From IMG/VR virus record IMGVR_UViG_3300045988_107970, positions 1 to 64,000 of that record: DNA of 64,000 bases; one strand, given 5' to 3'. The stretch is from a virus. Both the position numbers and the translations under genes were made by a program. The notes under the pieces were generated by a model, which saw only the letters and a list, made by a program, of their open reading frames with translations, made no database searches and was not told where the DNA came from. Shown here piece by piece: positions 14,851-30,608 of the stretch (positions are counted from its first letter, which is position 1; each line of letters begins with the position of its first letter).

Positions 14851-14864
14851 TTCCCATATGGGAA
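14851..14864. repeat. perfect 14-bp palindrome TTCCCATATGGGAA
   Basis: Self-complementary; partial copy CCATATGGG at 14815-14823. Confidence 0.85.
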
Positions 14865-14870
14865 TATCTA

Positions 14871-14963
14871 ATATCACGTCTCATAGGCGGCAACACTATC
14901 CCACGCCTTTTCTCACTTCTTTCCTTTCATTTGTGTTGCCGTCTATAAGGCGTGATATTTTTT
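14871..14963 (+). terminator. unusually long hairpin (26-bp stem, 36-nt loop) followed by T6
   Basis: Arms 14871-14896 and 14933-14958 pair with one C-A mismatch and two G-U pairs; T run 14958-14963. Confidence 0.7.
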
Positions 14964-14991
14964 GTGGAGAAAATATGAACTTGAAATATAG

Positions 14992-15020
14992 TTGACATGT
15001 AGTTACCAACTATATATACT
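14992..15020 (+). promoter_or_regulatory. sigma70-type promoter
   Basis: TTGACA 14992-14997; 17-nt spacer; TATACT 15015-15020. Confidence 0.7.
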
Positions 15021-15061
15021 ATTAGGCAAGAAAAGAGAAAACCTTAGAGAAAGGTACTTTA

Positions 15062-15937
15062 ATGAACGATACGATGAACCACAAGATTCAGACTTCAACC
15101 GCTTGTATCGGACATTTCATCGACACCACTATTTATGAAACCTACCTTGGTGAGCTTTGGGGTGGTATTCCCTACAACATGCGCGACAAGGCCGATGATG
15201 AGCTTGGTGAGAGCGCGGTTGCGTATATTGAATCTGCTATTTGTGATATTCTCCCGTCTGATTATGATGATGATTTTTATATTACGTATACTGGCACGTA
15301 CCATCCGAAGTATTATAACTTTGAGACCGATTCGGTTCTGTTTGATTTTGCATACACGGATGGACTGTGTGAGTTTATGCTTGGCTACGCTGCCATGAAC
15401 CGTAATAATTTTGAGGAGTTTCTTGAGAAGAAGTATACTTCTCACGATGGCTATGTATCGTTCACGCCTAACAACTGGGATGATTGGTATGATGGGTATG
15501 TAAAGGATGATTTTCGTTGCGTATCTGCCCTGCTTTATTTCATGCTTATTATGTGTTCTTGCGTAAACATTGACGATAACTATAATTTCGTTGACGAGAA
15601 TACATATCAGATGGGGTTTGTAGAGAGCGCTACGCAGATTATTTCCGAAGGTTATACGCCTTATTCATACGCTGTGAAGTATGAGAACGGAATGGTTATA
15701 GCTGTTTTCAGCGATTGTGATAATAACGGGGCTTTCTTCAGCTGCTATCTGGTTGATGCTAACGGCAACGTAATTAAGCATGAGCAGATGTCGGATGCTT
15801 ACGAGGAGTTTAACGACAGTGCATTTGCCGCCTTTGAGTACGGCGATATTGAAAACCTTTTGGATGATGATTCGATTCTTTATCATCTTCGCAGTGAACC
15901 GTGCAGCGTTCCCGATATTCCCGAGCATGAGTGCTAA
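15062..15937 (+). CDS. hypothetical highly acidic protein (291 aa)
   Basis: ORF track; GAGAAAGG RBS; rich in D/E/Y. Confidence 0.7.
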   Translation: MNDTMNHKIQTSTACIGHFIDTTIYETYLGELWGGIPYNMRDKADDELGESAVAYIESAICDILPSDYDDDFYITYTGTYHPKYYNFETDSVLFDFAYTDGLCEFMLGYAAMNRNNFEEFLEKKYTSHDGYVSFTPNNWDDWYDGYVKDDFRCVSALLYFMLIMCSCVNIDDNYNFVDENTYQMGFVESATQIISEGYTPYSYAVKYENGMVIAVFSDCDNNGAFFSCYLVDANGNVIKHEQMSDAYEEFNDSAFAAFEYGDIENLLDDDSILYHLRSEPCSVPDIPEHEC

Positions 15938-15945
15938 TGTGTGAT

Positions 15946-16086
15946 ATGGCGTATTGCATTTGGAATAATTGTCAAGGTGCCTTTGCAGTCAAGAACAAAG
16001 CCGATTCTGAAAAGTTCAAAAAAGATATGCAAAAGCACCTTGACGCGCTATTTAATATGTGCAATAATCTATCGAAGGTTTATTAG
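15946..16086 (+). CDS. hypothetical small protein (46 aa)
   Basis: Own translation MAYCIWNNCQGAFAVKNKADSEKF... Confidence 0.35.
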   Translation: MAYCIWNNCQGAFAVKNKADSEKFKKDMQKHLDALFNMCNNLSKVY

Positions 16087-16109
16087 TGTCCGCATAAAAG
16101 GAGTATAAT

Positions 16110-16523
16110 ATGCTGACTGCGATTTGCAAGAGTGTTGAAGATGCTGATTATTGGGCTTATGACGATACGATTGAGGACGTTCTTGAGGATATTGTCTATG
16201 TAACAGACAGTGAGCATTGTGCTGGCGAGCATGAGTGTGTGGCTTCTGCCCTTGATCCAAAGGGCAATGATTGGTATACTGATTCTTTACAGACAAATGA
16301 AATGATGTTGTCTGATGATGAATTGTTTGTGGTTACTTACTATGTCTATGATGGTAACGGTTCATTTGACGAGCTGGTCGATTTTGCTATCACTAAGAAC
16401 GATATTATCAATAATGTTCTCACGAATAAGTATGTCGAGGGTGCTTATTATTGGACGTTTGGACAGATGCTAAAGACCACTAATGACTGGCTTAATGGCA
16501 AGTACGGTGAGTATGACGATTAG
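16110..16523 (+). CDS. hypothetical acidic protein (137 aa)
   Basis: ORF track; AAGGAG RBS. Confidence 0.65.
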   Translation: MLTAICKSVEDADYWAYDDTIEDVLEDIVYVTDSEHCAGEHECVASALDPKGNDWYTDSLQTNEMMLSDDELFVVTYYVYDGNGSFDELVDFAITKNDIINNVLTNKYVEGAYYWTFGQMLKTTNDWLNGKYGEYDD

Positions 16524-16561
16524 TTTTTAATTGTGCCTTATACGGAAAAGTAAAACGTTTT

Positions 16562-16590
16562 AGCAGGGCTTAAATAGCCCTGCTTTCTTA
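16562..16590 (+). terminator. intrinsic terminator
   Basis: AGCAGGGCT/AGCCCTGCT stem. Confidence 0.75.
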
Positions 16591-16595
16591 TCTAC

Positions 16596-16624
16596 TTGAT
16601 AGCTACTTTTATATGCAATACAAT
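16596..16624 (+). promoter_or_regulatory. sigma70-type promoter of the CTACTTGAYA family
   Basis: TTGATA 16596-16601; 17-nt spacer; TACAAT 16619-16624. Confidence 0.7.
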
Positions 16625-16663
16625 ATAGTTAGACTAATGTAACATATAAAGGAGTGCTTATGT

Positions 16664-16873
16664 ATGTCAAATATAAAGGCAAATGTACAGAAAAATGAAC
16701 GCGCCATGCTTAATACGACAATAAACAAAGGCGTTTTAGATAGTTTTAAAGCCCATTGTAAAGGCGCTGGGATGCCTATGAACACGGTATTGGAGACGTT
16801 CATGGTACAGTTTGTATCGGGCGAGTTCGTGCTAAAGATAGGCAAAAGCAATAAGATTGATATTAAAGACTAG
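16664..16873 (+). CDS. ribbon-helix-helix protein, RelB/DinJ-antitoxin-like (paralog of 17627..17818)
   Basis: LNTTINKGVLDSFKAHCKGAGMPMNTVLETFMVQFVSGEF aligns with the paralog LNTTIDKDVKDAFSAYCKQVGFSMNTVLEILMRQFANGEF. Confidence 0.5.
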   Translation: MSNIKANVQKNERAMLNTTINKGVLDSFKAHCKGAGMPMNTVLETFMVQFVSGEFVLKIGKSNKIDIKD

Positions 16874-16892
16874 CATTTAGCTGGTCTTTTTT
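16868..16892 (+). terminator. intrinsic terminator
   Basis: GACTAGC/GCTGGTC stem (one G-U pair), T6 run. Confidence 0.65.
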
Positions 16893-16907
16893 ATTTGGAA
16901 TATCTAC

Positions 16908-16935
16908 TTGACAACTATATGATAAGTAGTATCAT
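16908..16935 (+). promoter_or_regulatory. sigma70-type promoter of the CTACTTGAYA family
   Basis: TTGACA 16908-16913; 16-nt spacer; TATCAT. Confidence 0.6.
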
Positions 16936-16972
16936 GTATGTTGATAGTCGGAAGAAAGGATAGACCGTGGGT

Positions 16973-17062
16973 ATGAATAGCGATGACTGGAAAATTATAA
17001 TCTTTTGTTTTATTTTTTGTACGACATTGCTTGTCTTAGAGTTTATCCATATATATAGTTAG
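16973..17062 (+). CDS. possible 29-aa hydrophobic peptide
   Basis: Own translation MNSDDWKIIIFCFIFCTTLLVLEFIHIYS; AAAGGA RBS. Confidence 0.3.
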   Translation: MNSDDWKIIIFCFIFCTTLLVLEFIHIYS

Positions 17063-17073
17063 GTTGGAAAATT

Positions 17074-17412
17074 ATGAGTGATGTTGGTTTTATTGTTATG
17101 GAAGACCCCATTATGACTCCACAAGCAGTTACGGAAAAGATTGATAACACGCCCATTGAGATTGCTCAAGCCGCCAAAGACGAGGTGTATGTTGTATGGT
17201 ATGACAATGGTTGTGCATACGAGGATGGTTATCAAGAGATTGATAGAATCTTTTCTAATTATGACGATGCCGCTAAGTATCTTGATGATTGTGGATGTTA
17301 TAAGGATGTTCGAAATGGATATAATGGAGAATATATGATATGGTTTCCACCATATGACGTGGAATATCCTGATTTTGGACACTATACCATTCGTGAGTTT
17401 GATTTGTACTAA
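17074..17412 (+). CDS. hypothetical acidic protein (112 aa)
   Basis: ORF track. Confidence 0.6.
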   Translation: MSDVGFIVMEDPIMTPQAVTEKIDNTPIEIAQAAKDEVYVVWYDNGCAYEDGYQEIDRIFSNYDDAAKYLDDCGCYKDVRNGYNGEYMIWFPPYDVEYPDFGHYTIREFDLY

Positions 17413-17427
17413 TTGTTAGGAGAAAAA

Positions 17428-17625
17428 ATGTCTAAGATTCATCCACGTTGTTGCGCCAACTGCCGTAACTGTGAGCCGTTTGATAACGGTTTCGAGGTTG
17501 AGGACGATGAAGCAGGCTATTGTAAGGCGCATGAGTGGGAGATTGTATACTTGGATGATGATTCGTGGTGCGATGATTTTGTAGCTGTGAAATCGACCCG
17601 TGTTCGTGACGAGGATTGGGATTAA
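17428..17625 (+). CDS. small Cys-rich (zinc-binding?) protein
   Basis: ATG 17428 after GGAGAAAAA; CCANCRNC motif. Confidence 0.55.
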   Translation: MSKIHPRCCANCRNCEPFDNGFEVEDDEAGYCKAHEWEIVYLDDDSWCDDFVAVKSTRVRDEDWD

Positions 17626-17626
17626 C

Positions 17627-17818
17627 ATGGTGGAAAATAACAAGGTCGTACTCAATACAACCATTGACAAAGACGTTAAGGACGCTTTCAGCGCCTACTG
17701 CAAACAGGTTGGTTTCTCTATGAACACGGTGCTAGAGATTCTTATGCGACAATTTGCGAATGGCGAGTTTCGTATTAAGTTTGAAAAGAATAAGTTGGAT
17801 CTTGATTTAGAAGGATAA
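17627..17818 (+). CDS. ribbon-helix-helix protein, RelB/DinJ-antitoxin-like (paralog of 16664..16873)
   Basis: See paralog alignment; ATG 17627 sits 1 nt after the upstream stop. Confidence 0.5.
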   Translation: MVENNKVVLNTTIDKDVKDAFSAYCKQVGFSMNTVLEILMRQFANGEFRIKFEKNKLDLDLEG

Positions 17819-17844
17819 TACCTTATATATAGGTTATAATAGAT

Positions 17845-17875
17845 GGGTGGAACATTTATTGTTCCACCCTTTTTT
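17845..17875 (+). terminator. intrinsic terminator
   Basis: GGGTGGAAC/GTTCCACCC stem, T6 run. Confidence 0.85.
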
Positions 17876-17912
17876 ATTTTCAAAATTGACTGCAAAAATA
17901 TGAGCTAACTAC

Positions 17913-17941
17913 TTGATAACTACATTGATATAAGGTAGAAT
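17913..17941 (+). promoter_or_regulatory. sigma70-type promoter of the CTACTTGAYA family
   Basis: TTGATA 17913-17918; 17-nt spacer; TAGAAT 17936-17941. Confidence 0.7.
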
Positions 17942-17974
17942 ATAGTAAAGAAAGACGAGAGGAAGGGATTGATA

Positions 17975-18778
17975 ATGGCTAGTCCAGCATTTGCGCCAGT
18001 TGTTGTGGAAGAAAAGCAGCAGAACAATATCATTCCGTTTAGTGTTATCATTGGCACTAAAGATGTTAAGCCTAAAAGTCCGAAGGCTCGTGATAACAGC
18101 GGTGGATTAAAGCCTGCTGGTGTATCTTCTGAGGTGTATGCTTTCCGTACCGATGAAGAGATTAAGTCTATGATTGATGTGTTTGACAAGCATATCAATG
18201 AAGCTACCGATGAACACCATCGTCAGCTTGCCAGTCGGAACAAGCTGCTGTTCGTTATTGGTATCAATGTTGGTTTGCGTGCAAGCGATTTGATTACGCT
18301 TAAATGGAGTTTCTTCTTGGACTGCGTTAAGGACGGAGAGTATAAGTTTAAGGACTTCTATACTTTGCAACCTAAGAAAACACGCAAGCAGAAGAAGTTT
18401 GTTAAGTTGTTCTTTAATAACACTGTTAAAAAGATTATTGTAGAGTATCTTAATGAGTTCCCTGTGGACAATTTAGACGAATATATGTTTAAGTCTCGTG
18501 AGGGTGACGGTGCCATTGCAGCCACTACTCTTTGGCGTATTATCAAGAACATCGCCAAGGAAGCGGGGATTAACCAGAATATCGGTAGCCATAGTCTGCG
18601 TAAAACGTGGGGTAGATTCTGTTTTGAACAGGCTGAAGACAAAACAAGGGCTTTGGTTTTATTGCAAAAGGCTTTCAATCATTCTAGTCAAGACGTTACA
18701 CTGCACTATCTTGGATTGCTTGATGATGATATTCAAGATATGTATGAGAGTATTAACATTGGTTATGATTTTATTTAA
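17975..18778 (+). CDS. tyrosine recombinase / phage integrase family protein
   Basis: GLRASDLITLKW (Arg I), GSHSLRKTWG (H-x-x-R), NHSSQDVTLHYLG (catalytic Tyr region). Confidence 0.8.
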   Translation: MASPAFAPVVVEEKQQNNIIPFSVIIGTKDVKPKSPKARDNSGGLKPAGVSSEVYAFRTDEEIKSMIDVFDKHINEATDEHHRQLASRNKLLFVIGINVGLRASDLITLKWSFFLDCVKDGEYKFKDFYTLQPKKTRKQKKFVKLFFNNTVKKIIVEYLNEFPVDNLDEYMFKSREGDGAIAATTLWRIIKNIAKEAGINQNIGSHSLRKTWGRFCFEQAEDKTRALVLLQKAFNHSSQDVTLHYLGLLDDDIQDMYESINIGYDFI

Positions 18779-18793
18779 TGAAAGGTGAGTATC

Positions 18794-18979
18794 ATGGGAC
18801 TGTTTGGTCGGAAAAAAGACATTACCAACATGGTATTTGACTGGGATTTGTACTGGAAAGATATTGAGAATGGCGTTGACAACAAAATTATAGTCAAGAA
18901 GATGGAAAGTCTTGATTACTATGTGAGCAAGGCCGAACAGTCATACGGAAAAATTTTAGTAGCGGCATACGCAAAGTAA
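18794..18979 (+). CDS. hypothetical protein (61 aa)
   Basis: ATG 18794 after AAAGGTGAG. Confidence 0.5.
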   Translation: MGLFGRKKDITNMVFDWDLYWKDIENGVDNKIIVKKMESLDYYVSKAEQSYGKILVAAYAK

Positions 18980-18986
18980 TTGATAT

Positions 18987-19020
18987 AAGGCGGTTGTTTT
19001 TTGACGGCCGCCTTTGTTTA
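18987..19020 (+). terminator. intrinsic terminator
   Basis: AAGGCGG...CCGCCTT stem, T-rich tail. Confidence 0.65.
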
Positions 19021-19081
19021 TTATAATCTTAGATATTGAAGAGTGTTGGAGTGGTAAAACAAAACTAAGAGAAGGGAGCGC

Positions 19082-20023
19082 TTGTCTTTGCGGAAAAATT
19101 TTGATGACTTTATACAGACATTTGATTCCGATAACACGGCAAAGGTGGCTAAATCATTATGTGTTATAGGCGAATATGATTATTCAAATTGCACACCTGT
19201 TGATTTACAGAATATTATATTAGGAATGAATCCTAATAGCCCAAAGGCTATAACGACTATTATATATATCCTTGGTTTGTATGCAAAATATCTTGGCAAT
19301 AAAGATATGGAATATATGTTGAATGACTTGGATCGGAATATTCTTTGGTCATTAGCCAAACCAAATGCTTCTAAGAAATTTATTTCCAATGCGCAGTTTG
19401 AAAAGATATACCATGATATAGGAATGTATGAGGACTATAACGGATTTTATATACAGACACTATTTAGAAGTCTATATGAAGGTATCTATAACGATGATAT
19501 GAGCGTTGTGAAGAACCTTAGAGCGGAAAATATATGGTGGGATGGAACAACGTTAAAGCCCGATAATGGCGAGCCGTATGATATATCTATATCGAAAAAA
19601 TTAGCCGATGATTTGATTAAGCTGAGCAAAATTGATATATGGGAAAGACGGAACAGGTATGGGACATGCAAGATACCAATAGTCGGATTGCATGAAGACA
19701 GCTGTTTCAAGGTGGAGAATCGCAAAGGCAGTTCGGAATATTCCTATAGGTTCAGTTACTATAGGCTATTGCGGAATATATCTAAGAACTATGTTGGATA
19801 TAATCTGTTGCCGCTACAGATATATGTGAGCGGAATAATGCACAGGATAACATTGGAATTAGACAAGTGTGGAATAAATATCAAAGATGCCTTTGCGGAC
19901 AATAACAAGGATAGAAAAGTGAATGGAATAATTTCAGATGAATTGAAGCGCAGCATGTGCGATACGCCAGTGCGGAACTTCAGGGAAATGGTCAAAGGGC
20001 ATATAGATATTTTCTCTCCTTAG
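19082..20023 (+). CDS. hypothetical protein (313 aa), AT-rich; N-terminus vaguely integrase-SAM-like, no catalytic motifs seen
   Basis: ORF track; GAGAAGGGAG RBS, TTG start. Confidence 0.6.
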   Translation: MSLRKNFDDFIQTFDSDNTAKVAKSLCVIGEYDYSNCTPVDLQNIILGMNPNSPKAITTIIYILGLYAKYLGNKDMEYMLNDLDRNILWSLAKPNASKKFISNAQFEKIYHDIGMYEDYNGFYIQTLFRSLYEGIYNDDMSVVKNLRAENIWWDGTTLKPDNGEPYDISISKKLADDLIKLSKIDIWERRNRYGTCKIPIVGLHEDSCFKVENRKGSSEYSYRFSYYRLLRNISKNYVGYNLLPLQIYVSGIMHRITLELDKCGINIKDAFADNNKDRKVNGIISDELKRSMCDTPVRNFREMVKGHIDIFSP

Positions 20024-20474: not shown

Positions 20475-20510
20475 TACATATTTAGTCCGCTGATGCAATG
20501 CGGACTGCCA

Positions 20511-20573
20511 CGAAAAAAGTTTTCAAAATTTTCTAAAAAAGTTGTTGACATAGATATAGGCACCGTGTAATAT
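20511..20573 (+). promoter_or_regulatory. consensus sigma70 promoter P1 with A-rich UP-like element
   Basis: CGAAAAAAGTTTTCAAAATTTTCTAAAAAAG; TTGACA 20545-20550; 17-nt spacer; TAATAT 20568-20573. Confidence 0.8.
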
Positions 20574-20579
20574 AGTTGA

Positions 20580-21806
20580 TGTCAGAAAGAGACGCGGACA
20601 AATCGCAGATCAATCTGATGAGCACCTTGAGAAAAGAAGATGGAAAAAAGTTCAAAAAAGTTCTTGCAACTGATAAAGTTAGATGCTATAATATCTGACA
20701 CAGAGAAACGGAAGTTTCCAGTTGCACCTTGATATTTGCATAAAGTATCAGCGTTGAGAAATCAACGCGAAGGATTGTTTCAACCATGTGTATTCCAAAT
20801 TCCATTGGGTCATGGACGTGTTCAAAGAGTTCCACTATAGAGGATACCCTATAGGTAGGCTTTGCCTGATGCAGGTAACTGACATCTTTAGAAGGGCAGG
20901 AGAGATGGAAAATCTCAACTGAGGGCAGACACGGTGCTGTGATGAAACGCAAGAAAATGGTATCGCTAACTGGTCGCTATCGCAATAGATATGAGGTACG
21001 CACTTCATTGAACCAAGTAGAGGATAGTGTGGCAGCTATGCCAATCGCTTGGAGTGCCACAAGATAGTTGTCCAATTGATGCTGGTAATCAGCTATAAGA
21101 CCAGACGTGAGTACGAGTAGCCCAAATTTGGATAGTATAGAAGATTAATATGCTGAATGGTGGGTGAAAGTTGTTGGTAGCCAATCCAGCCATAGATTGA
21201 CGTAAAGTCGGGATGGAAAGATACGAGGTCGCTCCTTGTGTCTCAGCTCCATTTCCTATGTGACCGAATTACCACTACGTTTTATGAAGGTAAGGCGAAG
21301 GCCTGAGACAATCTTTCGCGTTGGTTTGCTTGACCGACAAAGCGAGGTTCGATTCTGTATTAGGTTTTTGGTTGCTTTGCTGATACAGATGGTGCGGTAC
21401 GATTCCGCAGACGGAAAATACAATGGCTCCTTTCTGTTTTGGTTTCATGGTTGCTCCAATTTAACTCAAACGTATTTTTCGTTAACGCTTAGTCCCAAGG
21501 TTTACGATGGAGATAGCTACCTGACAAGTCTTGGGCGCATGGTGGCGGCGTAATGTCACCCCTTGTCTTAACGGAGGAAGCGGACTGTTAAGCGTACACC
21601 GTTGCGTAAAATCGGTAGCGTTGGAAGGTCTGCCAGCGCGGACGGTATTTAAAATAAGTGACCCCTCTGGTAGTTGGCGAGGACTTTAGTAAGCTACCAC
21701 CGTCTATGGAATATATATTTGCCCTTTACCTTGATTGCGGGCGTTCCTTCAACGAAGCAGGCACCTTGTTGATTAAGTATATATTCCATAGACGGTAATG
21801 TGAACT
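20580..21806 (+). ncRNA. candidate large structured non-coding RNA (about 1.2 kb; family unassigned)
   Basis: Only one RBS-less 105-aa + strand ORF. Visibly higher GC than flanks. Many hairpins, including GNRA-capped stems (20705-20718, 20751-20768) and an 18-bp perfect stem (21700-21717/21778-21795). Two promoters upstream, tRNAs downstream. Confidence 0.5.
20643..20692 (+). promoter_or_regulatory. sigma70 promoter P2 with extended -10 and A-rich UP-like element
   Basis: GAAAAAAGTTCAAAAAAG; TTGCAA 20664-20669; 17-nt spacer; TGcTATAAT (TATAAT 20687-20692). Confidence 0.8.
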
Positions 21807-21892
21807 GGCGGTGTGGCGAAATAGGTATACGCTATGCTTTAATGGGCAAAACAGGTAGCTCCTGTATGCAAGTTCGACTCTTGCCACTGCCA
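21807..21892 (+). tRNA. tRNA-like element, class II shape, aberrant anticodon arm (no assignable anticodon)
   Basis: Acceptor GGCGGTG/CACTGCC; T arm GCAAG-TTCGACT-CTTGC; variable arm ACAGG-TAGCT-CCTGT. The anticodon region TATGCTTTAATGGGCAAA does not form a 5-bp stem with a 7-nt loop. Confidence 0.4.
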
Positions 21893-21948
21893 CGGAACAT
21901 TACCGTCTATTTTGAAATGGTAATACATAGTGGAAAATTGTACGTAGT

Positions 21949-22021
21949 GGGAGATTAGTTAATGTTAGTATAACACCCTGCTTATAACGGGGCGTGACAG
22001 GGGCAGCACCTGTATCTCCTA
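21949..22021 (+). tRNA. tRNA-Ile(UAU)-like, canonical cloverleaf lengths but non-canonical D and T loops
   Basis: Acceptor GGGAGAT/ATCTCCT; D stem GTTA/TAAC; anticodon stem CCCTG/CGGGG; loop CTTATAA. T loop is GGCAGCA instead of TTCRANN, and the D loop has no GG. Confidence 0.55.
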
Positions 22022-22056
22022 CTACCTATAATCTAAATTGTGTATTACCATTATAT

Positions 22057-22138
22057 GCCGCAGTAATCCTTTAAAGACGAGGGTTGGACTGTAAATCCAA
22101 TGTCTATGACTGGCTAGGAGCGTTACCTAGATGCGGCA
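22057..22138 (+). tRNA. tRNA-Tyr(GUA)-like with long variable arm, irregular D arm and non-canonical T loop
   Basis: Anticodon arm TTGGA-CTGTAAA-TCCAA; T arm CTAGG-AGCGTTA-CCTAG; acceptor GCCGCAG/ATGCGGC with a G-A mismatch. Confidence 0.5.
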
Positions 22139-22189
22139 CCTGTATCTATTATTACACACAATATAAGTTGTGTATTACCTTAATATAAT

Positions 22190-22271
22190 GTCCGATTGGT
22201 GGAATTGGCAGACACGACAGACTCAAAATCTGTTGCCGAAAGGCGTAACGGTTCGACCCCGTTATCGGACA
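22190..22271 (+). tRNA. tRNA-Leu(CAA)
   Basis: Acceptor GTCCGAT/ATCGGAC; D loop with GG; anticodon arm ACAGA-CTCAAAA-TCTGT; variable arm GCC-GAAA-GGC; T arm AACGG-TTCGACC-CCGTT. Confidence 0.85.
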
Positions 22272-22321
22272 CCCAGATTACTTAGATATAATGTTGTTTA
22301 CATTATATCTGTAATATAAAC

Positions 22322-22396
22322 GGGCGCGTGGACTAATGGATAAGTCAACTGGCCTCTACCCAGTTCATCATGCGGGTTCGACTCCTGCCGCGTCCG
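22322..22396 (+). tRNA. tRNA-Arg(UCU)-like (C at position 33, 7-nt variable region)
   Basis: Acceptor GGGCGCG/CGCGTCC; D arm GACT-AATGGATA-AGTC; anticodon arm ACTGG-CCTCTAC-CCAGT; T arm GCGGG-TTCGACT-CCTGC. Confidence 0.7.
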
Positions 22397-22507
22397 CCTA
22401 GTTGTAAACGCAGAATGGCTAGTCAGAAAGTAGCTAGTCTGATGAAAGGTGAAACCTACACACCAAGCCATTCTGCTTACATATATTGTAGGGGATTGTA
22501 GGTCTGT

Positions 22508-22942
22508 ATGACTGAATCAAAAACAAATAAAGGAATATCAACAGAACTTAAGTTTTTTAGTTATTGCTTGGATAATGATATTGTTGTTTGTCAGCCAGTA
22601 ACTACAGATACACCGTATGATTGTATTTTTGAAGGAAAATCTGGACGCCTTTATAAAGCACAATTAAAAACTGGATATAGACCATCCAAGTTAAAAGACC
22701 AGAATGTTTTTGCGTATAGTACAAGAACAAGTCATTTTTCAAAAGACGGTGTTTCTTCTCATGGATATACAAAAGGACAGATTGATGGTTTTATTACTTA
22801 TTTTAATGAATTGCCAGATATGTTTTTTTATATTCCAATTGAATTAAGTAAAAAAGGTTCAATGAGGATTTACTTTGGAGACAAGCCTACTGCTCAATCA
22901 AATTATTATAAAGATTTTTTATTGGATTTTTCTAAATTATAG
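22508..22942 (+). CDS. PD-(D/E)XK endonuclease, I-Ssp6803I-like (PDDEXK_5-type) putative homing endonuclease
   Basis: 144 aa. GISTELKFFSYCLDNDIVVCQPVTTDTPYDCIF...LYKAQLKT fits the E...PxD...(E/Q)xK layout. AT-rich, embedded between tRNA genes. Confidence 0.55.
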   Translation: MTESKTNKGISTELKFFSYCLDNDIVVCQPVTTDTPYDCIFEGKSGRLYKAQLKTGYRPSKLKDQNVFAYSTRTSHFSKDGVSSHGYTKGQIDGFITYFNELPDMFFYIPIELSKKGSMRIYFGDKPTAQSNYYKDFLLDFSKL

Positions 22943-22955
22943 ATATAATATATAT

Positions 22956-23038
22956 GGAAACATGGCGTAATGGTAGCGCAGCACCCTGCTAAGGTGTCCT
23001 AGCGTAAGCTAGTCTGAGTTCGATTCTCAGTGTTTCCG
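22956..23038 (+). tRNA. tRNA-Ser(GCU)
   Basis: Acceptor GGAAACA/TGTTTCC; anticodon loop CTGCTAA; variable arm CTAGC-GTA-GCTAG; T arm CTGAG-TTCGATT-CTCAG. Confidence 0.85.
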
Positions 23039-23250
23039 CCTTGTATATTTATGCCCCTATTGGCAGTGGCTTTGAAGCTGTGCCGAAAACAGCTTTTGCG
23101 GTAGAATAGGCAACGCCGCATAGCTATTCGGGAGGATAGCGAGCCTTCTTGCTAGGAGATAAGCAAGTGCTTTCACGGAGTAATTGGTGAGCTGAAACAC
23201 CGTAAAAACAGATCCTCTGGATGTGCCGTGAATACGCATCCTGTTTTTTT
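23039..23250 (+). promoter_or_regulatory. structured 5' leader ending in an intrinsic terminator (attenuator or riboswitch candidate, class unassigned)
   Basis: Hairpins at 23075-23095, 23123-23140, 23148-23167 and 23175-23203. Terminator GGATGTG/CGCATCC plus T7 at 23219-23250, 30 nt before the SPFH gene. Confidence 0.45.
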
Positions 23251-23280
23251 GTTTGAATGTTGTACGTAGAAAGGGTTGGT

Positions 23281-24279
23281 ATGATAACGTTTGTTGTCGG
23301 AATTATTGCACTACTTATTGCAATTCCATTCATTGTCTTTGATATTCGCACAAAGATTCCCGAACCTGTCGGGAACACCAATATTCTTGGGAAGTCATAT
23401 ATTAAAAACGAGACGGATATTAAGACTGTAAAGTTTGCGCACACTTGCGCTCGTGGCGTTGCAGTAGTATGTATTGTCTTTGCCTTTGCATTTATCGGTG
23501 GTTCTTGCATCTATACACAGGACACTGGTGAGGTTTGCGTAATTCGTAATCTCGGTGGTTCTCTTGCCGATTCAACTTCTGAAGCTGGTTTCCATATCAA
23601 GGCACCGTGGCAAGATGTTATTACGTATGATGTCCGTAATAATCTTATCAACTTTTATGGCGACACAGATTACAAGGTTGACGGTGGCTCATATGAGGGT
23701 AAGCAGGTATCAATCAATGATAAGTCTGGTGCAAGTGCCAACGTTGATATTCAGGTAAACTATAGCTTGAATCCAGATTCAGCACTTAGCCTTTATTCTG
23801 AGTATGGTACGCAGGAAAGCTTTGTCGAGAAGTATATTTCCAATGATGTTCGCGCCGTTACCCGTGAGGTTTCTGGTAAGTTTGATACCGTTACCATGCT
23901 GACTGATCGCTCGCAGTTCACAAAGGCTATTCAAGATGCGCTGACTAAGAAGTGGAATAAGATTGGCCTTACTGTTGAGCAGGTAAGCGTACAGGATGTG
24001 CGCTATCCTAAGTCTATTACCGATAGCTATTCGCAGGCTCAGGCAGCTGAGGTAGCAAAGCAGAAGGCGCAGAACGAGCAGGAGACTGCAAAGGTTCAGG
24101 CTGAGACTAAGAAGATTGAAGCTCAGGGCGAAGCTGACGCAAATGCAGTTCTCGCACAAAGCCTTAATGACCAAGTGTTGCAGCAGCACTACATTGATGC
24201 TTTGAAGGATGTCGGTAAGGAAGGTAATCTTGTTGTGGTTCCCAATGGATCCACTCCAATGATTAACACTGGTAAATAA
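23281..24279 (+). CDS. SPFH/Band 7 (prohibitin/HflK-like) membrane protein
   Basis: N-terminal TM helix ITFVVGIIALLIAIPFIVF, SPFH-like core, C-terminal coiled AQAAEVAKQKAQNEQETAKVQAETKKIEAQGEADA. Confidence 0.75.
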   Translation: MITFVVGIIALLIAIPFIVFDIRTKIPEPVGNTNILGKSYIKNETDIKTVKFAHTCARGVAVVCIVFAFAFIGGSCIYTQDTGEVCVIRNLGGSLADSTSEAGFHIKAPWQDVITYDVRNNLINFYGDTDYKVDGGSYEGKQVSINDKSGASANVDIQVNYSLNPDSALSLYSEYGTQESFVEKYISNDVRAVTREVSGKFDTVTMLTDRSQFTKAIQDALTKKWNKIGLTVEQVSVQDVRYPKSITDSYSQAQAAEVAKQKAQNEQETAKVQAETKKIEAQGEADANAVLAQSLNDQVLQQHYIDALKDVGKEGNLVVVPNGSTPMINTGK

Positions 24280-24882: not shown

Positions 24883-25329
24883 GTGAATTTTTCTAAGTTT
24901 GATATGCGTATGTTCAATGAAGCACGTATGGAAGCTGAATCATCTGAATTTAAAAGGTTTCATACTGGGGCTGTAATTGTCTATAAGAAACATATTATTG
25001 GGCGCGGAAAGAATGATGATAAGTCTCACCCAATGCAAAAGGAATACAACCGTAAATATAGGACGTTTAATAACGTTGGCGGTAATTATATCAATGATAG
25101 TATCCATGCCGAAATTGCAGCTATTTCATCGATACCGTATACTGTTGGAATAGATATTGATTGGTCTAAAGTTAAGGTGTATGTATATAGAATCTCTCGT
25201 GGTACTAAACTTGGATACGGACTTGCAAAGCCCTGCCCTGCTTGTATGAACGCACTAAAAGACCTTGGAATAAAGAATATCTATTATACTGATAGTGATG
25301 GTTATAGCTATCTCCAACTTGATGTGTAA
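24883..25329 (+). CDS. dCMP/cytidine deaminase family protein
   Basis: Zinc motifs HAEIAAI and PCPACMNAL. Confidence 0.85.
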   Translation: MNFSKFDMRMFNEARMEAESSEFKRFHTGAVIVYKKHIIGRGKNDDKSHPMQKEYNRKYRTFNNVGGNYINDSIHAEIAAISSIPYTVGIDIDWSKVKVYVYRISRGTKLGYGLAKPCPACMNALKDLGIKNIYYTDSDGYSYLQLDV

Positions 25330-25455
25330 TTATTTTGTGAAGAGAGTTCCATTTGTGTTACTTTTCTGATATAATATCATAAGAATAAAACAGAATTTTC
25401 TGATGGAAGATTCTTTGTGATGTAAATAGATTGAAAGAAAGTTGGAATATGATAT

Positions 25456-25830
25456 ATGGAAATGCCATTTAAGGAACAGACAGTAGAGAGCGATGATTTC
25501 TACTATAATTTTTATGGTTGTCTTGATATTGAGATATCAGATGCGGATTATGAGTGCGATCATGTTGGTGATTGTTCATTGGAAGATTTCGATGACAATT
25601 TGCCAGACGCTTTAATTGATTATGATTTTGATGAACGAGTTCTCGGTAACATGATGGTGAGTAAGTTTGTCGGAAGTTTAAGCGACAATGAAAAATATAT
25701 CCTATCATGTCTATTAAATGGGATGACACATCAAGAGATTAGTGATACAATGGATTGTACGAGACAGAATGTCACTAGGACTGTGGAAAGACTCGGCACA
25801 AAAGCTATTGATTTTCTGTCTTGCAATTAA
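25456..25830 (+). CDS. sigma-70 region-4-like / HTH transcription regulator
   Basis: LSDNEKYILSCLLNGMTHQEISDTMDCTRQNVTRTVERLGTKAIDFL. Confidence 0.5.
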   Translation: MEMPFKEQTVESDDFYYNFYGCLDIEISDADYECDHVGDCSLEDFDDNLPDALIDYDFDERVLGNMMVSKFVGSLSDNEKYILSCLLNGMTHQEISDTMDCTRQNVTRTVERLGTKAIDFLSCN

Positions 25831-25860
25831 GGTTATATGCCAATAGAAAGGTGATTTATT

Positions 25861-26403
25861 ATGGCGCGTAAAAAGAATACCGTAACTCAGGCTGTTGTAG
25901 ATGAACTTATGGAGAGTTGTGATATCGCTGTCACTACTGCGTTTGACAAGTGTACCATTGTAGCATGTAAGCTACCAAATGGATTTGTAATTGTTGAGTC
26001 CTCTTCTTGCGTTGACCCTGCCAACTATGACGAGGATATGGGTGTCGATATTTGTATGAAGAATATTGAGCGCAAGGTGTGGGAGCTTGAGGGCTATCTC
26101 CTACAGAACAAACTATACCATTATTCAGATGTTTCCGATGGCGATGATGTCGTTGATGAGCAAGATTGCGATGGAGATTGCGAGCATTGCGACCTATATG
26201 ATTCTCAGGACGAGGATGATGTAAAGGATGAGCCGAAGCGCAAGAATCATGATGATGAGGACGATGATTATTGGGATAAGCTCATTCAGACTTACAGTGA
26301 TTATCTAGATTATGTTGATGATTATCTTGATGATTTAGCGCGTCATAGTCATAAGCGCCGCTATCGTGAGTTTAATCCTTATCGTAATAATGTTTGGTGC
26401 TAA
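25861..26403 (+). CDS. Gp49-like (N4 gp49 / Sf6 gp66 family) domain protein with acidic tail
   Basis: KCTIVACKLPNGFVIVESSSCVDPANYDEDMGVDICMKNIERKVWELEGY. Confidence 0.6.
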   Translation: MARKKNTVTQAVVDELMESCDIAVTTAFDKCTIVACKLPNGFVIVESSSCVDPANYDEDMGVDICMKNIERKVWELEGYLLQNKLYHYSDVSDGDDVVDEQDCDGDCEHCDLYDSQDEDDVKDEPKRKNHDDEDDDYWDKLIQTYSDYLDYVDDYLDDLARHSHKRRYREFNPYRNNVWC

Positions 26404-26503
26404 ACAATAGAATACATATAGATTATATGGAGAATGGTTTTGATAATATGTATTCTGATAGAATACTAGTCGGAACTATTCTCCATATTGCTAAGGAGTT
26501 AAT

Positions 26504-27220
26504 GTGAGAGACGAAATAGACCATAGCGGTGAAGCATATGGTAGATTAACATTACTTAGTAAGAATGGAAATAGACAAGAATACTGGTGTTCTTGTAGTT
26601 GTGGAAGATATACAAAAGATAATCCAAAGCTCGTAAGATATCAGCGGATGGTAAATGGAAGTATAAAGTCTTGTGGGTGCTATAATCGAGAACGGTCTAG
26701 CAGGATGATATCTGAATATAATAAATCATTAATACGTGGAAACACGTATGATTTATCTGGTGAATATGGAATTGGATATACGTCTAATGGAGAAGAGTTT
26801 TATTTTGACTTAGAAGATTACGACAAAATTAAAGATTATACGTGGTTTATTAATAGCGGATATGTACGAACAAAGAGAGACGGACGTGTAATAAAATTAC
26901 ATAAATTACTTTGTGAAGGGAAGGAGATAGACCATTTTAATAGAAATAAATTAGACAATAGAAAAAGTAATTTAAGACCCATTACGCATAAGCAAAATAT
27001 GTTAAATAGAAGTATTGCCGTCAATAATACTTCTGGCGTAACTGGTGTGTCGTTTAATAAATCACACAATAAATGGTATGCAGGCATATCAGAGAATGGT
27101 AATCGACACAACCTTGGTTATTTCGATAACTTTGACGATGCCATTGCAGCACGCAAGGCGGCAGAAGAAAAATATTTTGGTGGGTATAATTATAATAACA
27201 ACGTTAAAGGAGTTGCATAG
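26504..27220 (+). CDS. HNH homing endonuclease with C-terminal AP2 DNA-binding domain
   Basis: EIDHFNRNKLDNRKSNLR (HNH); SGVTGVSFNKSHNKWYAGI...LGYFDNFDDAIAARKAAEEKYFG (AP2); AT-rich. Confidence 0.8.
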   Translation: MRDEIDHSGEAYGRLTLLSKNGNRQEYWCSCSCGRYTKDNPKLVRYQRMVNGSIKSCGCYNRERSSRMISEYNKSLIRGNTYDLSGEYGIGYTSNGEEFYFDLEDYDKIKDYTWFINSGYVRTKRDGRVIKLHKLLCEGKEIDHFNRNKLDNRKSNLRPITHKQNMLNRSIAVNNTSGVTGVSFNKSHNKWYAGISENGNRHNLGYFDNFDDAIAARKAAEEKYFGGYNYNNNVKGVA

Positions 27221-30596: not shown

Positions 30597-30608
30597 AGGA
30601 GTTTTTAT

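Follow-up and report, generated by a model that had tools for sequence, protein, structure and literature searches.

Our preferred explanation, which we hold to be somewhat better than an even bet, is that the DNA analysed here (64,000 nucleotides, positions 1 to 64,000 of IMG/VR virus record IMGVR_UViG_3300045988_107970; hereafter the window) contains the start of the tRNA operon of a gut phage, directly 3' of a ROOL RNA, that the three tRNA-derived genes at this start have been kept by selection, and that the helices flanking them are RNA structures. These Leu-like, Ile-like and Tyr-like genes are the first three of the tRNA cluster, just 3' of the ROOL RNA (Table 1). A preliminary description of this DNA, made from the sequence alone, had called them non-canonical tRNA-like genes, and they are indeed such genes, with their features lying where they were reported. 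All of the abnormal features of the three elements recur in related phages, and therefore they are not the product of chance.

The ROOL RNA is probably the 5' part of the same transcript as the tRNA array, so that the tRNA operon would be co-transcribed with it. In the relatives, too, a ROOL motif is found approximately 680 nt 5' of the Leu-like tRNA; in the window the Leu-like element lies approximately 480 nt past the ROOL 3' end, and further structured RNA intervenes. It had been proposed that the elements could be modules of the upstream large RNA, but this is not supported as a general rule, as ordinary tRNAs follow other ROOL loci. The Leu(CAA), Arg(UCU) and Ser(GCU) genes further downstream are all ordinary according to ARAGORN and Rfam, which agrees with the earlier view of Leu(CAA) and Ser(GCU) as canonical, and the Arg(UCU) loop is CCTCTAC, with C33 as previously noted. 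Also encoded nearby are a cysteine desulfurase, a deaminase, and an RNA-repair gene pair (RNA ligase and kinase/phosphatase) 6 kb downstream, while two integrase-family genes (17969-20023) are situated close to the array. The tRNA content of the array varies among relatives, making it a mosaic.

Table 1. Features at the start of the tRNA array, with positions in the window.
Feature	Position	Strand	Basis and details
Candidate promoter	20664-20692		Promoter scan; TTGCAA-17-TATAAT, TG upstream
ROOL RNA	20760-21323	+	Rfam RF03087, 290.3 bits (gathering score 99.1)
Long hairpin H	21699-21796	+	Inverted-repeat search; arms 21699-21720 / 21775-21796
Stalk S, leader arm	21788-21801	+	ATAGACGGTAATGT; inverted repeat, 14 bp
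tRNA-like gene from tRNA-Leu(UAA)	21807-21892	+	ARAGORN, tRNA-???(aa); Rfam tRNA (RF00005), 38.5 bits (gathering score 29)
Stalk S, trailer arm	21897-21910	+	ACATTACCGTCTAT; includes the third ACCGTCTAT copy
Ile unit leader	21916-21948	+	Distal arm AATGGTAATACATAGT, 21916-21931; acceptor extension GTACGTAGT, 21940-21948, 9 nt
tRNA-Ile(UAU), variant lineage, window-specific allele	21949-22021	+	Rfam; ARAGORN -mt
Ile unit trailer	22021-22052	+	ACTACCTAT, 22021-22029, pairs with 21940-21948; ATTGTGTATTACCATT, 22037-22052, pairs with 21916-21931
tRNA-Tyr(GUA), alternative-elbow class	22057-22140	+	Covariation; ARAGORN -ps80
54-nt repeat, second copy	22133-22186	+	First copy 22003-22056; 80% identity
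tRNA-Leu(CAA)	22189-22275	+	ARAGORN / Rfam
tRNA-Arg(UCU), C33	22322-22398	+	
PD-(D/E)XK endonuclease ORF	22508-22942	+	
tRNA-Ser(GCU)	22956-23040	+	

ARAGORN, which had been suggested as a check, calls the Leu-like element at its default settings, but it matches the Ile-like gene in -mt mode only and the Tyr-like gene at -ps80 only. With the Rfam tRNA model the Ile-like gene reaches 34.4 bits if the search is limited to a short slice and is missed in the whole-window run, and the Tyr-like gene scores 13.7 bits. Elements that standard tools reject or barely accept, in an array whose tRNA content differs between relatives, might be expected if all three were decaying tRNA pseudogenes, functionless products of duplication and recombination in a fast-changing array. 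The comparisons described below lead us to regard this as very improbable.

The Leu-like element is descended from tRNA-Leu(UAA), and its 5' half matches ordinary tRNA-Leu(UAA) genes. The acceptor stem, the T arm (TTCGACT) and the class II variable arm, all noted earlier, are canonical, as is the D arm (GG); U8, G18G19 and A73 are also kept, so that nothing required for the L-shape or by enzymes that handle tRNA is missing, and CCA is not encoded. The preliminary description was also right that a 5-bp anticodon stem with a 7-nt loop cannot form. In the anticodon arm, A-TGCT-TTAATG-GGCA-A, A27 and A43 are mismatched, and a stem of only 4 bp closes a loop of six nucleotides, UUAAUG (21839-21844).

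Homologues of this element were collected with a search pattern that left the anticodon arm unconstrained, giving an alignment (A1) of 22 distinct leader-tRNA-trailer variants from related phages. In these 22 variants the unit is 98.4% paired, 10 pairs have changed on both sides, and the observed covariation value was reached by none of 500 shuffles. The T, anticodon, variable and acceptor stems all contain compensatory changes, and there are three distinct anticodon stems (UGCU/GGCA, CGGA/UCCG and AGGA/UCCU), all of them paired. Such covariation, which is also extensive in the Tyr-like gene, argues against pseudogenes and contradicts the role of decayed tRNA that had been offered for these two elements. 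A truncated second copy of the Leu-like gene in relative L011 is what a pseudogene origin would predict; judged from the alignment, however, the Leu-like element is tRNA-derived and, like the other two elements, does not look decayed at the level of the family, and we take it to be maintained by selection.

We consider it probable that the Leu-like RNA mimics tRNA but does not decode: it would have lost normal decoding and would act as a mimic or as a processing handle. That it is instead still a decoder with unusual properties, reading UUN codons by means of a short anticodon stem or promoting frameshifting, seems unlikely to us. The loop always contains U-N-A-A, where N is U, G or A, and this varying wobble-like base before a constant AA resembles the evolution of an NAA anticodon, so that reading of UUN by this loop may persist. 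The anticodon stem, moreover, has been conserved, ARAGORN names the versions with a 7-nt loop Phe(gaa) and Phe(aaa), and tRNAs with a 4-bp anticodon stem are known to decode differently (PMC13092985). Against decoding, the loop has six nucleotides in most variants (UUAAUG in 19 of the 22, with the 7-nt AUGAAUG or AUAAAUG in the other 3), the equivalent of position 37 is U in all 22, and 27:43 is A·A or A·G throughout, never a pair. The same arrays also contain canonical genes for Leu(UAA) or Leu(CAA), and Phe codons would be miscoded by a tRNA that combined a Leu-type body with the anticodon GAA or AAA. Nor was a stop-codon recoding signal found in the window, where read-through of TAG, TGA and TAA in positions 1-24000 gives no coherent longer same-strand ORFs. 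A suppressor or recoding tRNA was considered and rejected, given this result and a loop that cannot present UUA in the standard 7-nt frame.

A different possibility is that the Leu-like RNA, and perhaps the stalked Ile unit described below, serves as a decoy or sponge for a host tRNA-targeting nuclease or tRNA-sensing factor, while the phage ligase and kinase repair the real tRNAs. This role would suit an RNA whose tRNA body is canonical but whose anticodon loop (U33-U34-A35-A36 in most variants) is disabled, and it would also agree with the RNA-repair gene pair and with the position of the Leu-like element, which is always the first of the array in relatives. Defences that target tRNAs, and phage tRNA countermeasures to them, are documented (PMC10264068, PMC11464382, PMC13056530). 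However, the wobble-like base varies between U, G and A, which a sequence-specific decoy should not tolerate. Moreover, we know of no tRNA-Leu(UAA)-specific nuclease in the likely hosts. We consider this role rather unlikely overall; of the three elements proposed earlier as decoys for anticodon nucleases, the Leu-like element is the only one for which it is possible.

Two long helices compete for the leader of the Leu-like element. Hairpin H has 22-nt arms that are 95% complementary and form a nearly invariant basal stem of 20-22 bp, rather than the 18 bp first reported, around a replaceable interior that ranges from 38 to 148 nt in relatives and is of several unrelated types. Across 11 arm variants from relatives, positions 1-20 pair, with eight G·U-type exceptions and one C·A. 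Stalk S, the exact inverted repeat that had been seen to clamp the Leu-like element, extends over 14 bp and not 12. The two helices are alternatives, as had been recognised: the 3' arm of hairpin H and the 5' arm of the clamp have positions 21788-21796 in common. The direct repeat reported at about 21699 and 21902 has a further, inverted copy: ACCGTCTAT occurs three times in the 64 kb, always here, at 21699 (+), 21788 (-) and 21902 (+). The chance expectation is 0.28, and three copies were reached in none of 100 shuffles.

Stalk S is 97.1% paired in the 22 variants of alignment A1. Where only one side of a pair has changed, the outcome is in nearly every case G·U in the + sense (6 U·G, 7 U·G and 7 G·U at three positions), and two C-G pairs are compensatory. 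The nine nucleotides common to hairpin H and stalk S are nearly invariant, and the unshared parts of each vary. One relative (L012) is without the trailer arm of stalk S, so the stalk is dispensable there. Because the changes are G·U or compensatory, the comparison identifies the leader-trailer helices as RNA structures.

The near-invariance of the ACCGTCTAT arms, which vary less than the tRNA stems, could instead mark a protein-binding or DNA-level site. The repeats would then be recombination, cassette-boundary or protein-binding sites, possible targets of the nearby tyrosine recombinases or PD-(D/E)XK endonuclease, and would account for a cassette-like shuffling of the tRNA genes and of the hairpin interior. 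The interior of hairpin H is in fact exchanged in this manner among relatives, an identical Tyr gene sits in differing neighbourhoods, the unit duplication in L011 occurred at the ACCGTCTAT motif, and both the integrase-family and the endonuclease genes are close by. We nevertheless think a DNA-level function improbable. Complementarity reaches well past the shared 9-mer, and the variation outside that segment is of G·U or compensatory type in the + sense alone, as one would expect of RNA or single-stranded + DNA but not of duplex DNA sites. The rod around the Ile gene behaves alike with different sequences.

Returning to the helices as RNA structures, conserved double-stranded stretches of 14, 16 and 20-22 bp, or roughly two turns, with G·U and compensatory substitutions flank the tRNA units and are probably processing stalks. 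The earlier idea of processing signals suits the helices, if by inference. A double-strand-specific RNase of the RNase III type, whose sites follow no usable sequence consensus, would cut the helices and free the units from a ROOL-tRNA precursor, with hairpin H and stalk S competing for the 9-nt segment.

The Ile-like gene forms a cloverleaf with an unusual D loop, AUGUUAGUA (A-G in place of G-G), and the T loop GGCAGCA (22002-22008), as previously described; CCA is not encoded. The stems and the anticodon loop, CUUAUAA, are the same as in relatives, and only the D and T loops differ. For the homologues in L011, L041, L005 and L178, ARAGORN in its default mode gives Ile(tat), and the T loops of the lineage are TTCAACG, ATCGTCA and GGCAGCA. 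The last of these is unique to the window; it could be a recent defect, and it is one of the points that a pseudogene origin would explain. On the other hand, in each genome this position is taken by one gene only, of Ile(UAU) or Met(CAU) type, the stems are identical though the flanks differ, and the five changes in the window allele are confined to the D and T loops and agree with the 18/55 covariation described below. The proposal that this allele is decayed is weakened accordingly. As part of the explanation given at the outset, and with the same better-than-even confidence in that explanation as a whole, we take the Ile-like element to be a tRNA-derived gene kept by selection.

The flanks of the Ile-like gene also clamp it, which the preliminary description had overlooked. 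They make a conserved rod of approximately 38 bp with the tRNA at its tip; the acceptor stem is prolonged by an extension of 9 bp, a distal helix of 16 bp follows, and no free 3' end is left. Both rod helices show compensatory and G·U changes among the six variants of the Ile unit alignment (for example in L005 and L167), in which the tRNA stems are invariant and thus uninformative on covariation. The rod helices, like hairpin H, form in the minimum-free-energy fold of 21690-22190 (z = -7.2).

With its closed acceptor and no CCA, the Ile rod, together with a Leu-like unit clamped by a 14-bp stem, invites comparison with Y RNAs. The stalked units could be scaffolds of this kind, never aminoacylated, that tether a protein, for instance Ro60/Rsr or an enzyme of RNA repair or decay. 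Mimicry of tRNA is known for the YrlA RNAs of bacteria and phages, and Yrn1 of D. radiodurans has a 6-nt 'anticodon loop' (PMC4201824); Y RNAs have also been linked to RNA-repair operons (PMC7790460). However, the Rfam YrlA model (RF02553) had no match in 20500-23400 at E <= 10, a Pfam scan of about 30 ORFs of the window revealed no TROVE/Ro60 protein, and inspection by eye of the Leu-like D arm alone revealed no GNCGAAN0-1G motif. Both units also have complete anticodon and variable arms, and the Ile anticodon loop is perfect. We therefore assign such scaffolds a low probability.

The shared flanks of the Ile-like and Tyr-like genes do reflect a duplication, but one consisting of a single 54-nt repeat and not two separate repeats. 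From its sequence, the second copy is a decayed duplicate of the 3' third and trailer of the Ile gene, fused to the Tyr gene at its 3' end, and L011, L009 and L167 are arranged likewise. A remnant of this kind behind the Tyr gene is consistent with pseudogene formation in the array. The second copy has a further ATTACC trailer motif (22172-22179), and 5 of the 14 window matches to GGTAATRY and its complement fall inside 386 nt here.

The Tyr-like gene has a 6-bp acceptor stem with an unpaired 7:66, a 4-nt linker (UAAU), A73 and an encoded CC. Its D arm, earlier judged poor, is a conserved 4-bp stem (22068-22071/22079-22082) that is displaced by two nucleotides and encloses the D loop UAAAGAC (22072-22078). 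The anticodon loop is CUGUAAA, the variable arm is of class II, and the T loop is AGCGUUA (22119-22125), as first reported. The preliminary description had overlooked that the gene belongs to a widespread class, which has 51 distinct members in the tRNA slots of many phage arrays. An alignment (A2) of 43 distinct sequences with unrelated stems has 94.8% of its cells paired, changes on both sides in 20 of 24 pairs, and a covariation score of 0.773 versus 0.191 for shuffles; the D loop UAAAGAN is invariant although it lay outside the search pattern. The 84-nt gene itself is 100% identical at 27 loci despite diverging flanks, which further opposes the view of these elements as pseudogenes. In large arrays the gene precisely fills a tRNA slot, most copies have an ACCA 3' end, and in a sample of 33 arrays no canonical Tyr(GUA) gene was called beside the alternative one. 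It is probable that the Tyr gene serves these arrays as their working decoder. ARAGORN at default settings overlooked 27 of the 33 sampled genes of this class, the Rfam tRNA model at E <= 10 matched none of five in other loci, and our literature search found no paper that describes the class.

No part of tRNA is more conserved than the elbow that the D and T loops form, and this elbow is read by RNase P, the CCA-adding enzyme, T-loop modification enzymes, T-box leaders and the ribosome. The canonical elbow (G18G19; U54-U55-C56-R57-A58) is present in the Leu-like element (GG; TTCGACT), but is absent from the Tyr gene (UAAAGAC / AGCGUUA) and from the Ile gene of the window (D loop ..UUAGUA, T loop GGCAGCA). 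Compensatory loop changes, which had been suggested as a check, take the form of a covariation between positions 18 and 55: in relaxed ARAGORN calls, false positives among them, U at T-loop position 55 accompanies a D-loop GG (776 versus 37), and G at that position accompanies a D loop without GG (58 versus 5 and 44 versus 6). The Ile allele of the window (G55, A18-G19) obeys this rule. In the Tyr class the inner contacts appear to be swapped, from U54/A58 to A54/U58 and from G18/U55 to A18/G55, and the outer G19-C56 pair can form by sequence. The earlier statement that both genes lack the elbow contacts is thus probably wrong, as the Tyr gene has a conserved alternative loop pair with a possible G19-C56 contact.

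With its rebuilt elbow the Tyr tRNA would not depend on the host factors by which the canonical T loop is read, or would be hidden from them, although any anti-defence benefit is speculation. We can put forward, as a tentative possibility and well short of even odds, that re-engineered phage tRNAs with covarying A54/U58 and A18/G55 work on bacterial ribosomes while escaping enzymes or nucleases that read the T loop, and that stalked mimics which are never charged control the processing of the ROOL-tRNA precursor.

A widespread alternative-elbow class means that phage tRNA repertoires have been under-counted, and it provides a natural test of how far the elbow tolerates rebuilding, as well as possible scaffolds for orthogonal tRNAs. 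For the question of why phages carry tRNAs, it offers a testable lead other than anticodon-loop variants. The Leu-derived mimic and the competing helices are the first defined handles on a possible processing of ROOL-tRNA precursors.

All three elements share with canonical tRNA (RF00005) a cloverleaf with acceptor, D, anticodon, variable and T arms. They differ from it in the 4-bp stem and 6-nt loop of the Leu-like element, in the Ile T loop GGCAGCA, and in the Tyr T loop AGCGUUA, D loop without GG, shifted D stem and unpaired 7:66. Leader-trailer stalks cut by RNase III are known from rRNA operons and phage transcripts, and here, too, helices of 14-22 bp flank stable RNA in a polycistronic non-coding transcript; unlike rRNA stalks, the present helices enclose single tRNAs, two of them share an arm and are mutually exclusive, and cleavage is putative. 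The mascRNA of MALAT1 is a tRNA-like 3'-end processing handle, and the Leu-like element is similar to it in having good acceptor and T arms, a probably non-functional anticodon loop and a location 3' of a large non-coding RNA. It differs in lying ~480 nt from the ROOL 3' end, and in other ROOL loci the adjacent position is taken by ordinary tRNAs. YrlA Y RNAs likewise carry a tRNA-like domain with a closed acceptor on a stem that their 5' and 3' ends make, as do the Leu-like stalk and the Ile rod, whereas the units described here match no YrlA model, keep anticodon and variable arms, and sit inside a tRNA array.

Arrays of tRNA genes adjoining ROOL and GOLLD RNAs have been described (PMC5737381, PMC12286853), and the layout here is of that kind, but two units are enclosed in long leader-trailer helices. 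Phage tRNAs are also known to counter tRNA-targeting defences (PMC10264068, PMC11555353, PMC11464382). Those that do so (the anticodon-loop variants of mycobacteriophages, T5 tRNA-Lys against PARIS, and T5 and SP15 tRNA-Tyr against retron-Eco7) likewise deviate from host tRNAs, Tyr included, and come from genomes that carry RNA-repair genes, as here. The published examples vary the anticodon loop or the expression level, whereas the Tyr and Ile genes of this phage vary the elbow, and we infer the link between them. The tRNAs with 4-bp stems (PMC13092985) resemble the Leu-like element in their short anticodon stem and unpaired 27:43, but theirs keep a 7-nt loop. Finally, metazoan mitochondrial tRNAs (PMC7033119) have lost the G18G19 and T54-Psi55 signature, as have the Tyr and Ile genes; their loops are relaxed and variable, whereas the phage class has a fixed alternative pair of D and T loops.

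The Leu-, Ile- and Tyr-like elements at the start of the array were described at first as non-canonical tRNA-like genes with duplicated flanks and mutually exclusive hairpins. All of the sequence features listed in that preliminary description are present in the window, and its interpretation was supported in part. With default settings ARAGORN reports 21807-21893 as tRNA-???(aa), together with Leu(CAA), Arg(UCU) and Ser(GCU), while the Ile-like gene is called in -mt mode only and the Tyr-like gene at -ps80 only. A focused Rfam search gave 34.4 bits for the Ile-like gene, which exceeds the gathering score of 29, and 13.7 bits for the Tyr-like gene. We show here that the three elements are selected tRNA-derived genes in an array linked to a ROOL RNA. 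The positions of these and neighbouring features are collected in the table.

Features of the ROOL-tRNA region and of the genes 3' of it
Feature	Position	Detail
Candidate extended -10 promoter	20664-20692	good; upstream of ROOL
ROOL RNA	20760-21323	Rfam, 290 bits
Conserved structured stretch	21324-21700	directly 3' of ROOL; kept in relatives
Weak cloverleaf	21348-21416	ARAGORN -ps80
RAGATH-36 match, sub-threshold	21390-21565	Rfam, 37 bits (gathering score 70), E = 3e-5
Hairpin H	21699-21720 / 21775-21796	22-nt arms
Stalk of Leu-like gene	21788-21801 / 21897-21910	14 bp
Sequence common to H and stalk	21788-21796	9 nt
Leu-like gene	21807-21892
Helix enclosing Ile gene	21916-21931 / 22037-22052	AATGGTAATACATAGT / ATTGTGTATTACCATT
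Helix extending Ile acceptor stem	21940-21948 / 22021-22029	GTACGTAGT / ACTACCTAT
Ile-like gene	21949-22021
54-nt repeat	22003-22056 / 22133-22186	80% identical
Tyr-like gene	22057-22140
Imperfect inverted repeat	22299-22318 / 22933-22952	20 nt
tRNA-Arg(UCU)	22322-22398	C33
Non-coding structured stretch	22410-22476	hairpin, perfect 11-nt arms, directly 3' of tRNA-Arg
PD-(D/E)XK endonuclease ORF	22508-22942	Pfam PDDEXK_5, E = 1.4e-14
Non-coding structured stretch	23041-23250	~175 nt with no ORF or Rfam match, from tRNA-Ser to stem + T run
Genes possibly acting on tRNA, clustered just 3' of array	24883-33120
Cytidine/deoxycytidylate-type deaminase	24883-25329
Class-V aminotransferase/cysteine desulfurase	27220-28392
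RNA ligase	28476-29654
Kinase + HD phosphatase	29655-30596
Radical SAM protein	32215-33120

The phage is large and encodes a Pol III alpha-type DNA polymerase, NrdD, an RNA ligase, a kinase/HD phosphatase, a cysteine desulfurase and a deaminase; the polymerase is approximately 40% identical to those of the Clostridium/Clostridioides phages c-st and phiCD211. A close relative among cultured phages was rejected, as a blastn comparison of 20700-23300 with 50,697 phage records returned nothing beyond short tRNA matches. Forty-four viral loci were retrieved through the downstream SPFH protein and more were added by DNA-pattern scans; the relatives are contigs of 125-131 kb, chiefly from human-gut assemblies. 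The tRNA content of the array varies between genomes, making it a mosaic, and wherever the upstream region is present in related loci the Leu-like element is the first gene, and next to it comes a single gene of Ile(UAU) or Met(CAU) type. Given the candidate promoter and the lack of a convincing terminator between it and the end of the tRNAs, we infer that ROOL and the array form a single transcription unit. The Leu-like tRNA is not a general companion of ROOL, since ordinary tRNAs come after ROOL in approximately 30 other loci. In the stretch directly 3' of ROOL, the first hairpin (GCGG-UACGAUU-CCGC) resembles a T arm, and a real tRNA occupies the site of the weak cloverleaf in other ROOL loci.

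The acceptor/D-arm sequence of the Leu-like gene is common to ARAGORN-called Leu(UAA) genes of other phages, indicating descent from tRNA-Leu(UAA). A metagenome search with the acceptor and D arm fixed and the anticodon arm unconstrained gave 20 matches, of which 18 added members to the family and the other two were unrelated tRNA-like sequences with long insertions after the D arm. No match was found in 185,579 species genomes, and the gene is confined to this phage family (15 viral contigs and the 18 metagenome matches, mostly human-gut assemblies). Among 22 distinct leader-tRNA-trailer variants (alignment A1), 98.4% of cells are paired and 10 pairs have changes on both sides, a value reached by none of 500 shuffles; three anticodon-stem cells counted as unpaired are an artefact of MAFFT, whose placement of the extra loop base puts the 5' side of that stem one column out in the three 7-nt-loop variants. 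The anticodon arm is UGCU-UUAAUG-GGCA in most variants, CGGA-UUAAUG-UCCG in L012, AGGA-AUGAAUG-UCCU in L178 and AGGA-AUAAAUG-UCCU in L183 and L184 (all loci of related phages), so that a 4-bp stem is kept through compensatory change. In every version 27:43 is A·A or A·G, and the 3' side of the loop is AAUG throughout, which makes position 37 a pyrimidine. The body is otherwise canonical (G18G19, T loop TTCRANY, class II arm, A73), G4·U69 is invariant and no CCA is encoded. Our reading is that the Leu-like gene is a tRNA body under strong selection with an anticodon loop whose build does not suit normal decoding. Ahead of the constant AA, the loop base varies (U, G or A) and resembles a wobble position, which leaves some room for aberrant decoding of UUN codons; that the gene is such an aberrant decoder is nevertheless quite improbable. 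The same arrays also carry canonical Leu(UAA) or Leu(CAA) genes. Pairing of the anticodon loop with the trailer was rejected because, on reading the alignment, the loop changes in L178 and L183 are unmatched by the trailer. Stop-codon reassignment with the odd tRNA as suppressor was likewise rejected, as ORF maps of 1-24000 with TAG, TGA or TAA read through gave no coherent gain. Window positions 1-20000 contain few long ORFs (for instance, none of at least 80 aa in 2003-3592 or 6871-8383), a scarcity that read-through of any single stop codon does not mend; small early genes or further non-coding RNAs could lie there.

The inverted repeat clamping the Leu-like gene is real, although its length is 14 bp rather than the 12 bp first reported. 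This stalk is 97.1% paired across variants, with two compensatory C-G pairs and with one-sided substitutions that are almost all G·U in the + sense; the trailer arm is absent in one relative, L012. The upstream hairpin H keeps 20 paired positions in 11 arm variants, departing from them by eight G·U-type changes and one C·A, and its interior has been swapped several times (38-148 nt, several unrelated types, each self-folding). The nine nucleotides common to both helices are nearly invariant, whereas the unshared parts of both vary. Such invariance matches one arm pairing with two partners and supports the suggestion that the helices are mutually exclusive; it would also fit a sequence-specific binding site. 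The Ile gene is enclosed as well, which had been missed, and its inner helix extends the acceptor stem without leaving a free discriminator. L005 and L167 carry compensatory or G·U substitutions in both Ile-enclosing helices, where a C·C mismatch is conserved, and both helices are present in the minimum-free-energy fold of 21690-22190 (z = -7.2). GGUAAU occurs in every leader and AUUACC in every trailer, and five of the 14 window matches to GGTAATRY lie within 386 nt. No CC(A) is encoded by the enclosed Leu-like and Ile units; the genes that are not enclosed (Tyr, Leu, Arg and Ser) do encode CC. The helices around two of the three genes are conserved RNA helices, and we infer that they may be processing stalks of the RNase III type. 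It is distinctly unlikely that the stalked units are Y-RNA-like scaffolds (PMC4201824). Membership of the Y RNAs themselves was rejected, with no YrlA model match in 20500-23400 at E <= 10 and no TROVE gene among approximately 30 window ORFs scanned.

The repeats could instead be DNA-level cassette sites, to which we assign little probability. ACCGTCTAT has three copies in 64 kb, all in this region, against a chance expectation of 0.28. The recurrence of the flanks is also real, the two flank sequences originally noted being parts of one 54-nt repeat. In the related locus L011 (IMGVR_UViG_3300045988_109861, 8054-8466) there is a tandem duplication in which a hairpin and the 5' half of the Leu-like gene join, at the TTATCGTCTAT motif, a second hairpin and full Leu-like gene; this duplication shows recombination at the ACCGTCTAT repeat.

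Six variants of the Ile lineage agree in all their stems and in having CUUAUAA as anticodon loop but differ in their T loops, which are UUCAACG (canonical) in L178 and AUCGUCA in L011, L043, L005 and L167, both with GG in the D loop, and GGCAGCA with AG in the window only. Default ARAGORN calls the homologues in L011, L041, L005 and L178 as Ile(tat). The window allele departs from the L011 type at five positions, every one of them in the D or T loop, while elsewhere it is the flanks that have diverged, a pattern unlike random decay; that the three elements are decaying tRNA pseudogenes is very improbable. Gene conversion as the source of the window T loop is unconvincing, as the downstream repeat copy matches at 5 of 8 positions only.

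The Tyr-like gene is 100% identical in 27 loci with diverging flanks, the identity being bounded by the gene borders. A scan with no requirement beyond the Tyr anticodon loop and GGAGCGTTA returned 95 viral and 79 genome stretches, which after a cloverleaf filter left 51 distinct Tyr genes whose acceptor, D, anticodon, variable and T stems are unrelated. In an alignment of 43 of these (A2), 94.8% of cells are paired and both partners vary in 20 of 24 pairs; the covariation score is 0.773, as compared with 0.191 in shuffles and no more than 0.167 in slid controls. The class has a 4-nt linker (UANN), a 4-bp D stem (98.3% paired) that is displaced by two nucleotides, no pairing of 7:66 in 31 of 43 genes, the T loop AGCGUUA and, in most copies, a 3' ACCA; the D loop UAAAGAN is invariant, though it lay outside the search pattern. 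These genes occupy exact tRNA slots in arrays of up to approximately 20 tRNAs, and no canonical Tyr(GUA) was called beside them in 33 arrays sampled. Default ARAGORN missed 27 of 33 sampled genes, and the Rfam tRNA model matched none of five tested at E <= 10. Carriers include many viral contigs and contigs of Ruminococcaceae, Clostridiales and Acutalibacteraceae genomes. The cultured Vibrio phage CHOED (KJ192399.2, ~56550-56636; L370 296-382) also has such a gene (D loop TAAAGAG, T loop AGCGTTA, 3' end ACCA), followed by a canonical tRNA in a stretch where the record annotates no tRNA, and the class is therefore not limited to phages of gut Firmicutes. Moogle-like phages and RiverRider were rejected as cultured carriers, their Tyr tRNAs being canonical. 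C1-G72, the archaeal/eukaryotic-type Tyr identity pair, replaces the bacterial G1-C72 in 13 of the 43 aligned genes. Another phage contig carrying a gene of the class gave, at L164 317-445, a sub-threshold YrlA match (Rfam, 36.2 bits, E = 4.6e-5) that overlaps two tRNA matches and may be a dimeric-tRNA false positive.

The Tyr-like gene has a co-varying alternative elbow. Run with relaxed settings over all 369 sequences collected, ARAGORN proposed 1,425 distinct candidates, not all of them true; among these, the T-loop form A-(G/U)-C-G-U-N-A is seen in Ala, Asn, Glu, Gly, Ile, Met, Phe, Ser, Thr and Trp tRNAs as well. In this same imperfect set, T-loop position 55 covaries with the D loop. With U55, GG is present in 776 and absent in 37 tRNAs with UUC.A loops (16 and 0 with A54/U58); with G55 it is present in 5 and absent in 58 with A54/U58. 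A second non-canonical type, U54-G55-C56-N-A58, includes TGCAAGT in Ser(GCU) and TGCGACT in Cys. Because G55 loops with U54/A58 also go with D loops lacking GG (44 versus 6), the G55/no-G18 rule seems to be general in these phage tRNAs. In such elbows G18·Psi55 would be replaced by A18·G55 and U54·A58 by A54·U58, and G19-C56 could persist. The window Ile allele (G55 with A18-G19) obeys the rule, and so may be compensated rather than broken.

Elsewhere in the array, the endonuclease ORF lies between Arg and Ser, bracketed with the Arg gene by the imperfect inverted repeat; in several relatives a Thr(UGU) gene, absent there from the window, lies between Arg and Ser or beside them. The ORF is possibly a free-standing homing endonuclease driving array mosaicism. 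C33, as in the window Arg gene, recurs in the phage family: two of its 15 distinct Arg(UCU) variants have it, as does one of its 13 Ile(UAU) variants. The stem and T run after tRNA-Ser directly precede the SPFH gene.

In the most likely working of the region, a ROOL-tRNA precursor would be cut at the stalks, the Tyr gene would be the working Tyr decoder of the array, and the Leu-like RNA would be a tRNA mimic that does not decode and serves as a processing handle or decoy. That the Leu-like element, and perhaps the stalked Ile element, is specifically a nuclease decoy appears unlikely. With its rebuilt elbow the tRNA might be independent of host factors recognizing the canonical T loop, or hidden from them. 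No published description of the alternative-elbow class or of the 6-nt-anticodon-loop class was found in a literature search; further work is best directed at the alternative-elbow Tyr class and at the conserved Leu derivative with its 6-nt loop. Escape through the elbow is plausible, since tRNA-targeting defences and phage tRNA countermeasures are documented (PMC10264068, PMC11555353, PMC11464382, PMC13056530) and RNA-repair genes lie nearby. Phage ROOL and GOLLD RNAs are known to neighbour tRNA islands (PMC5737381, PMC12286853), as ROOL does here.
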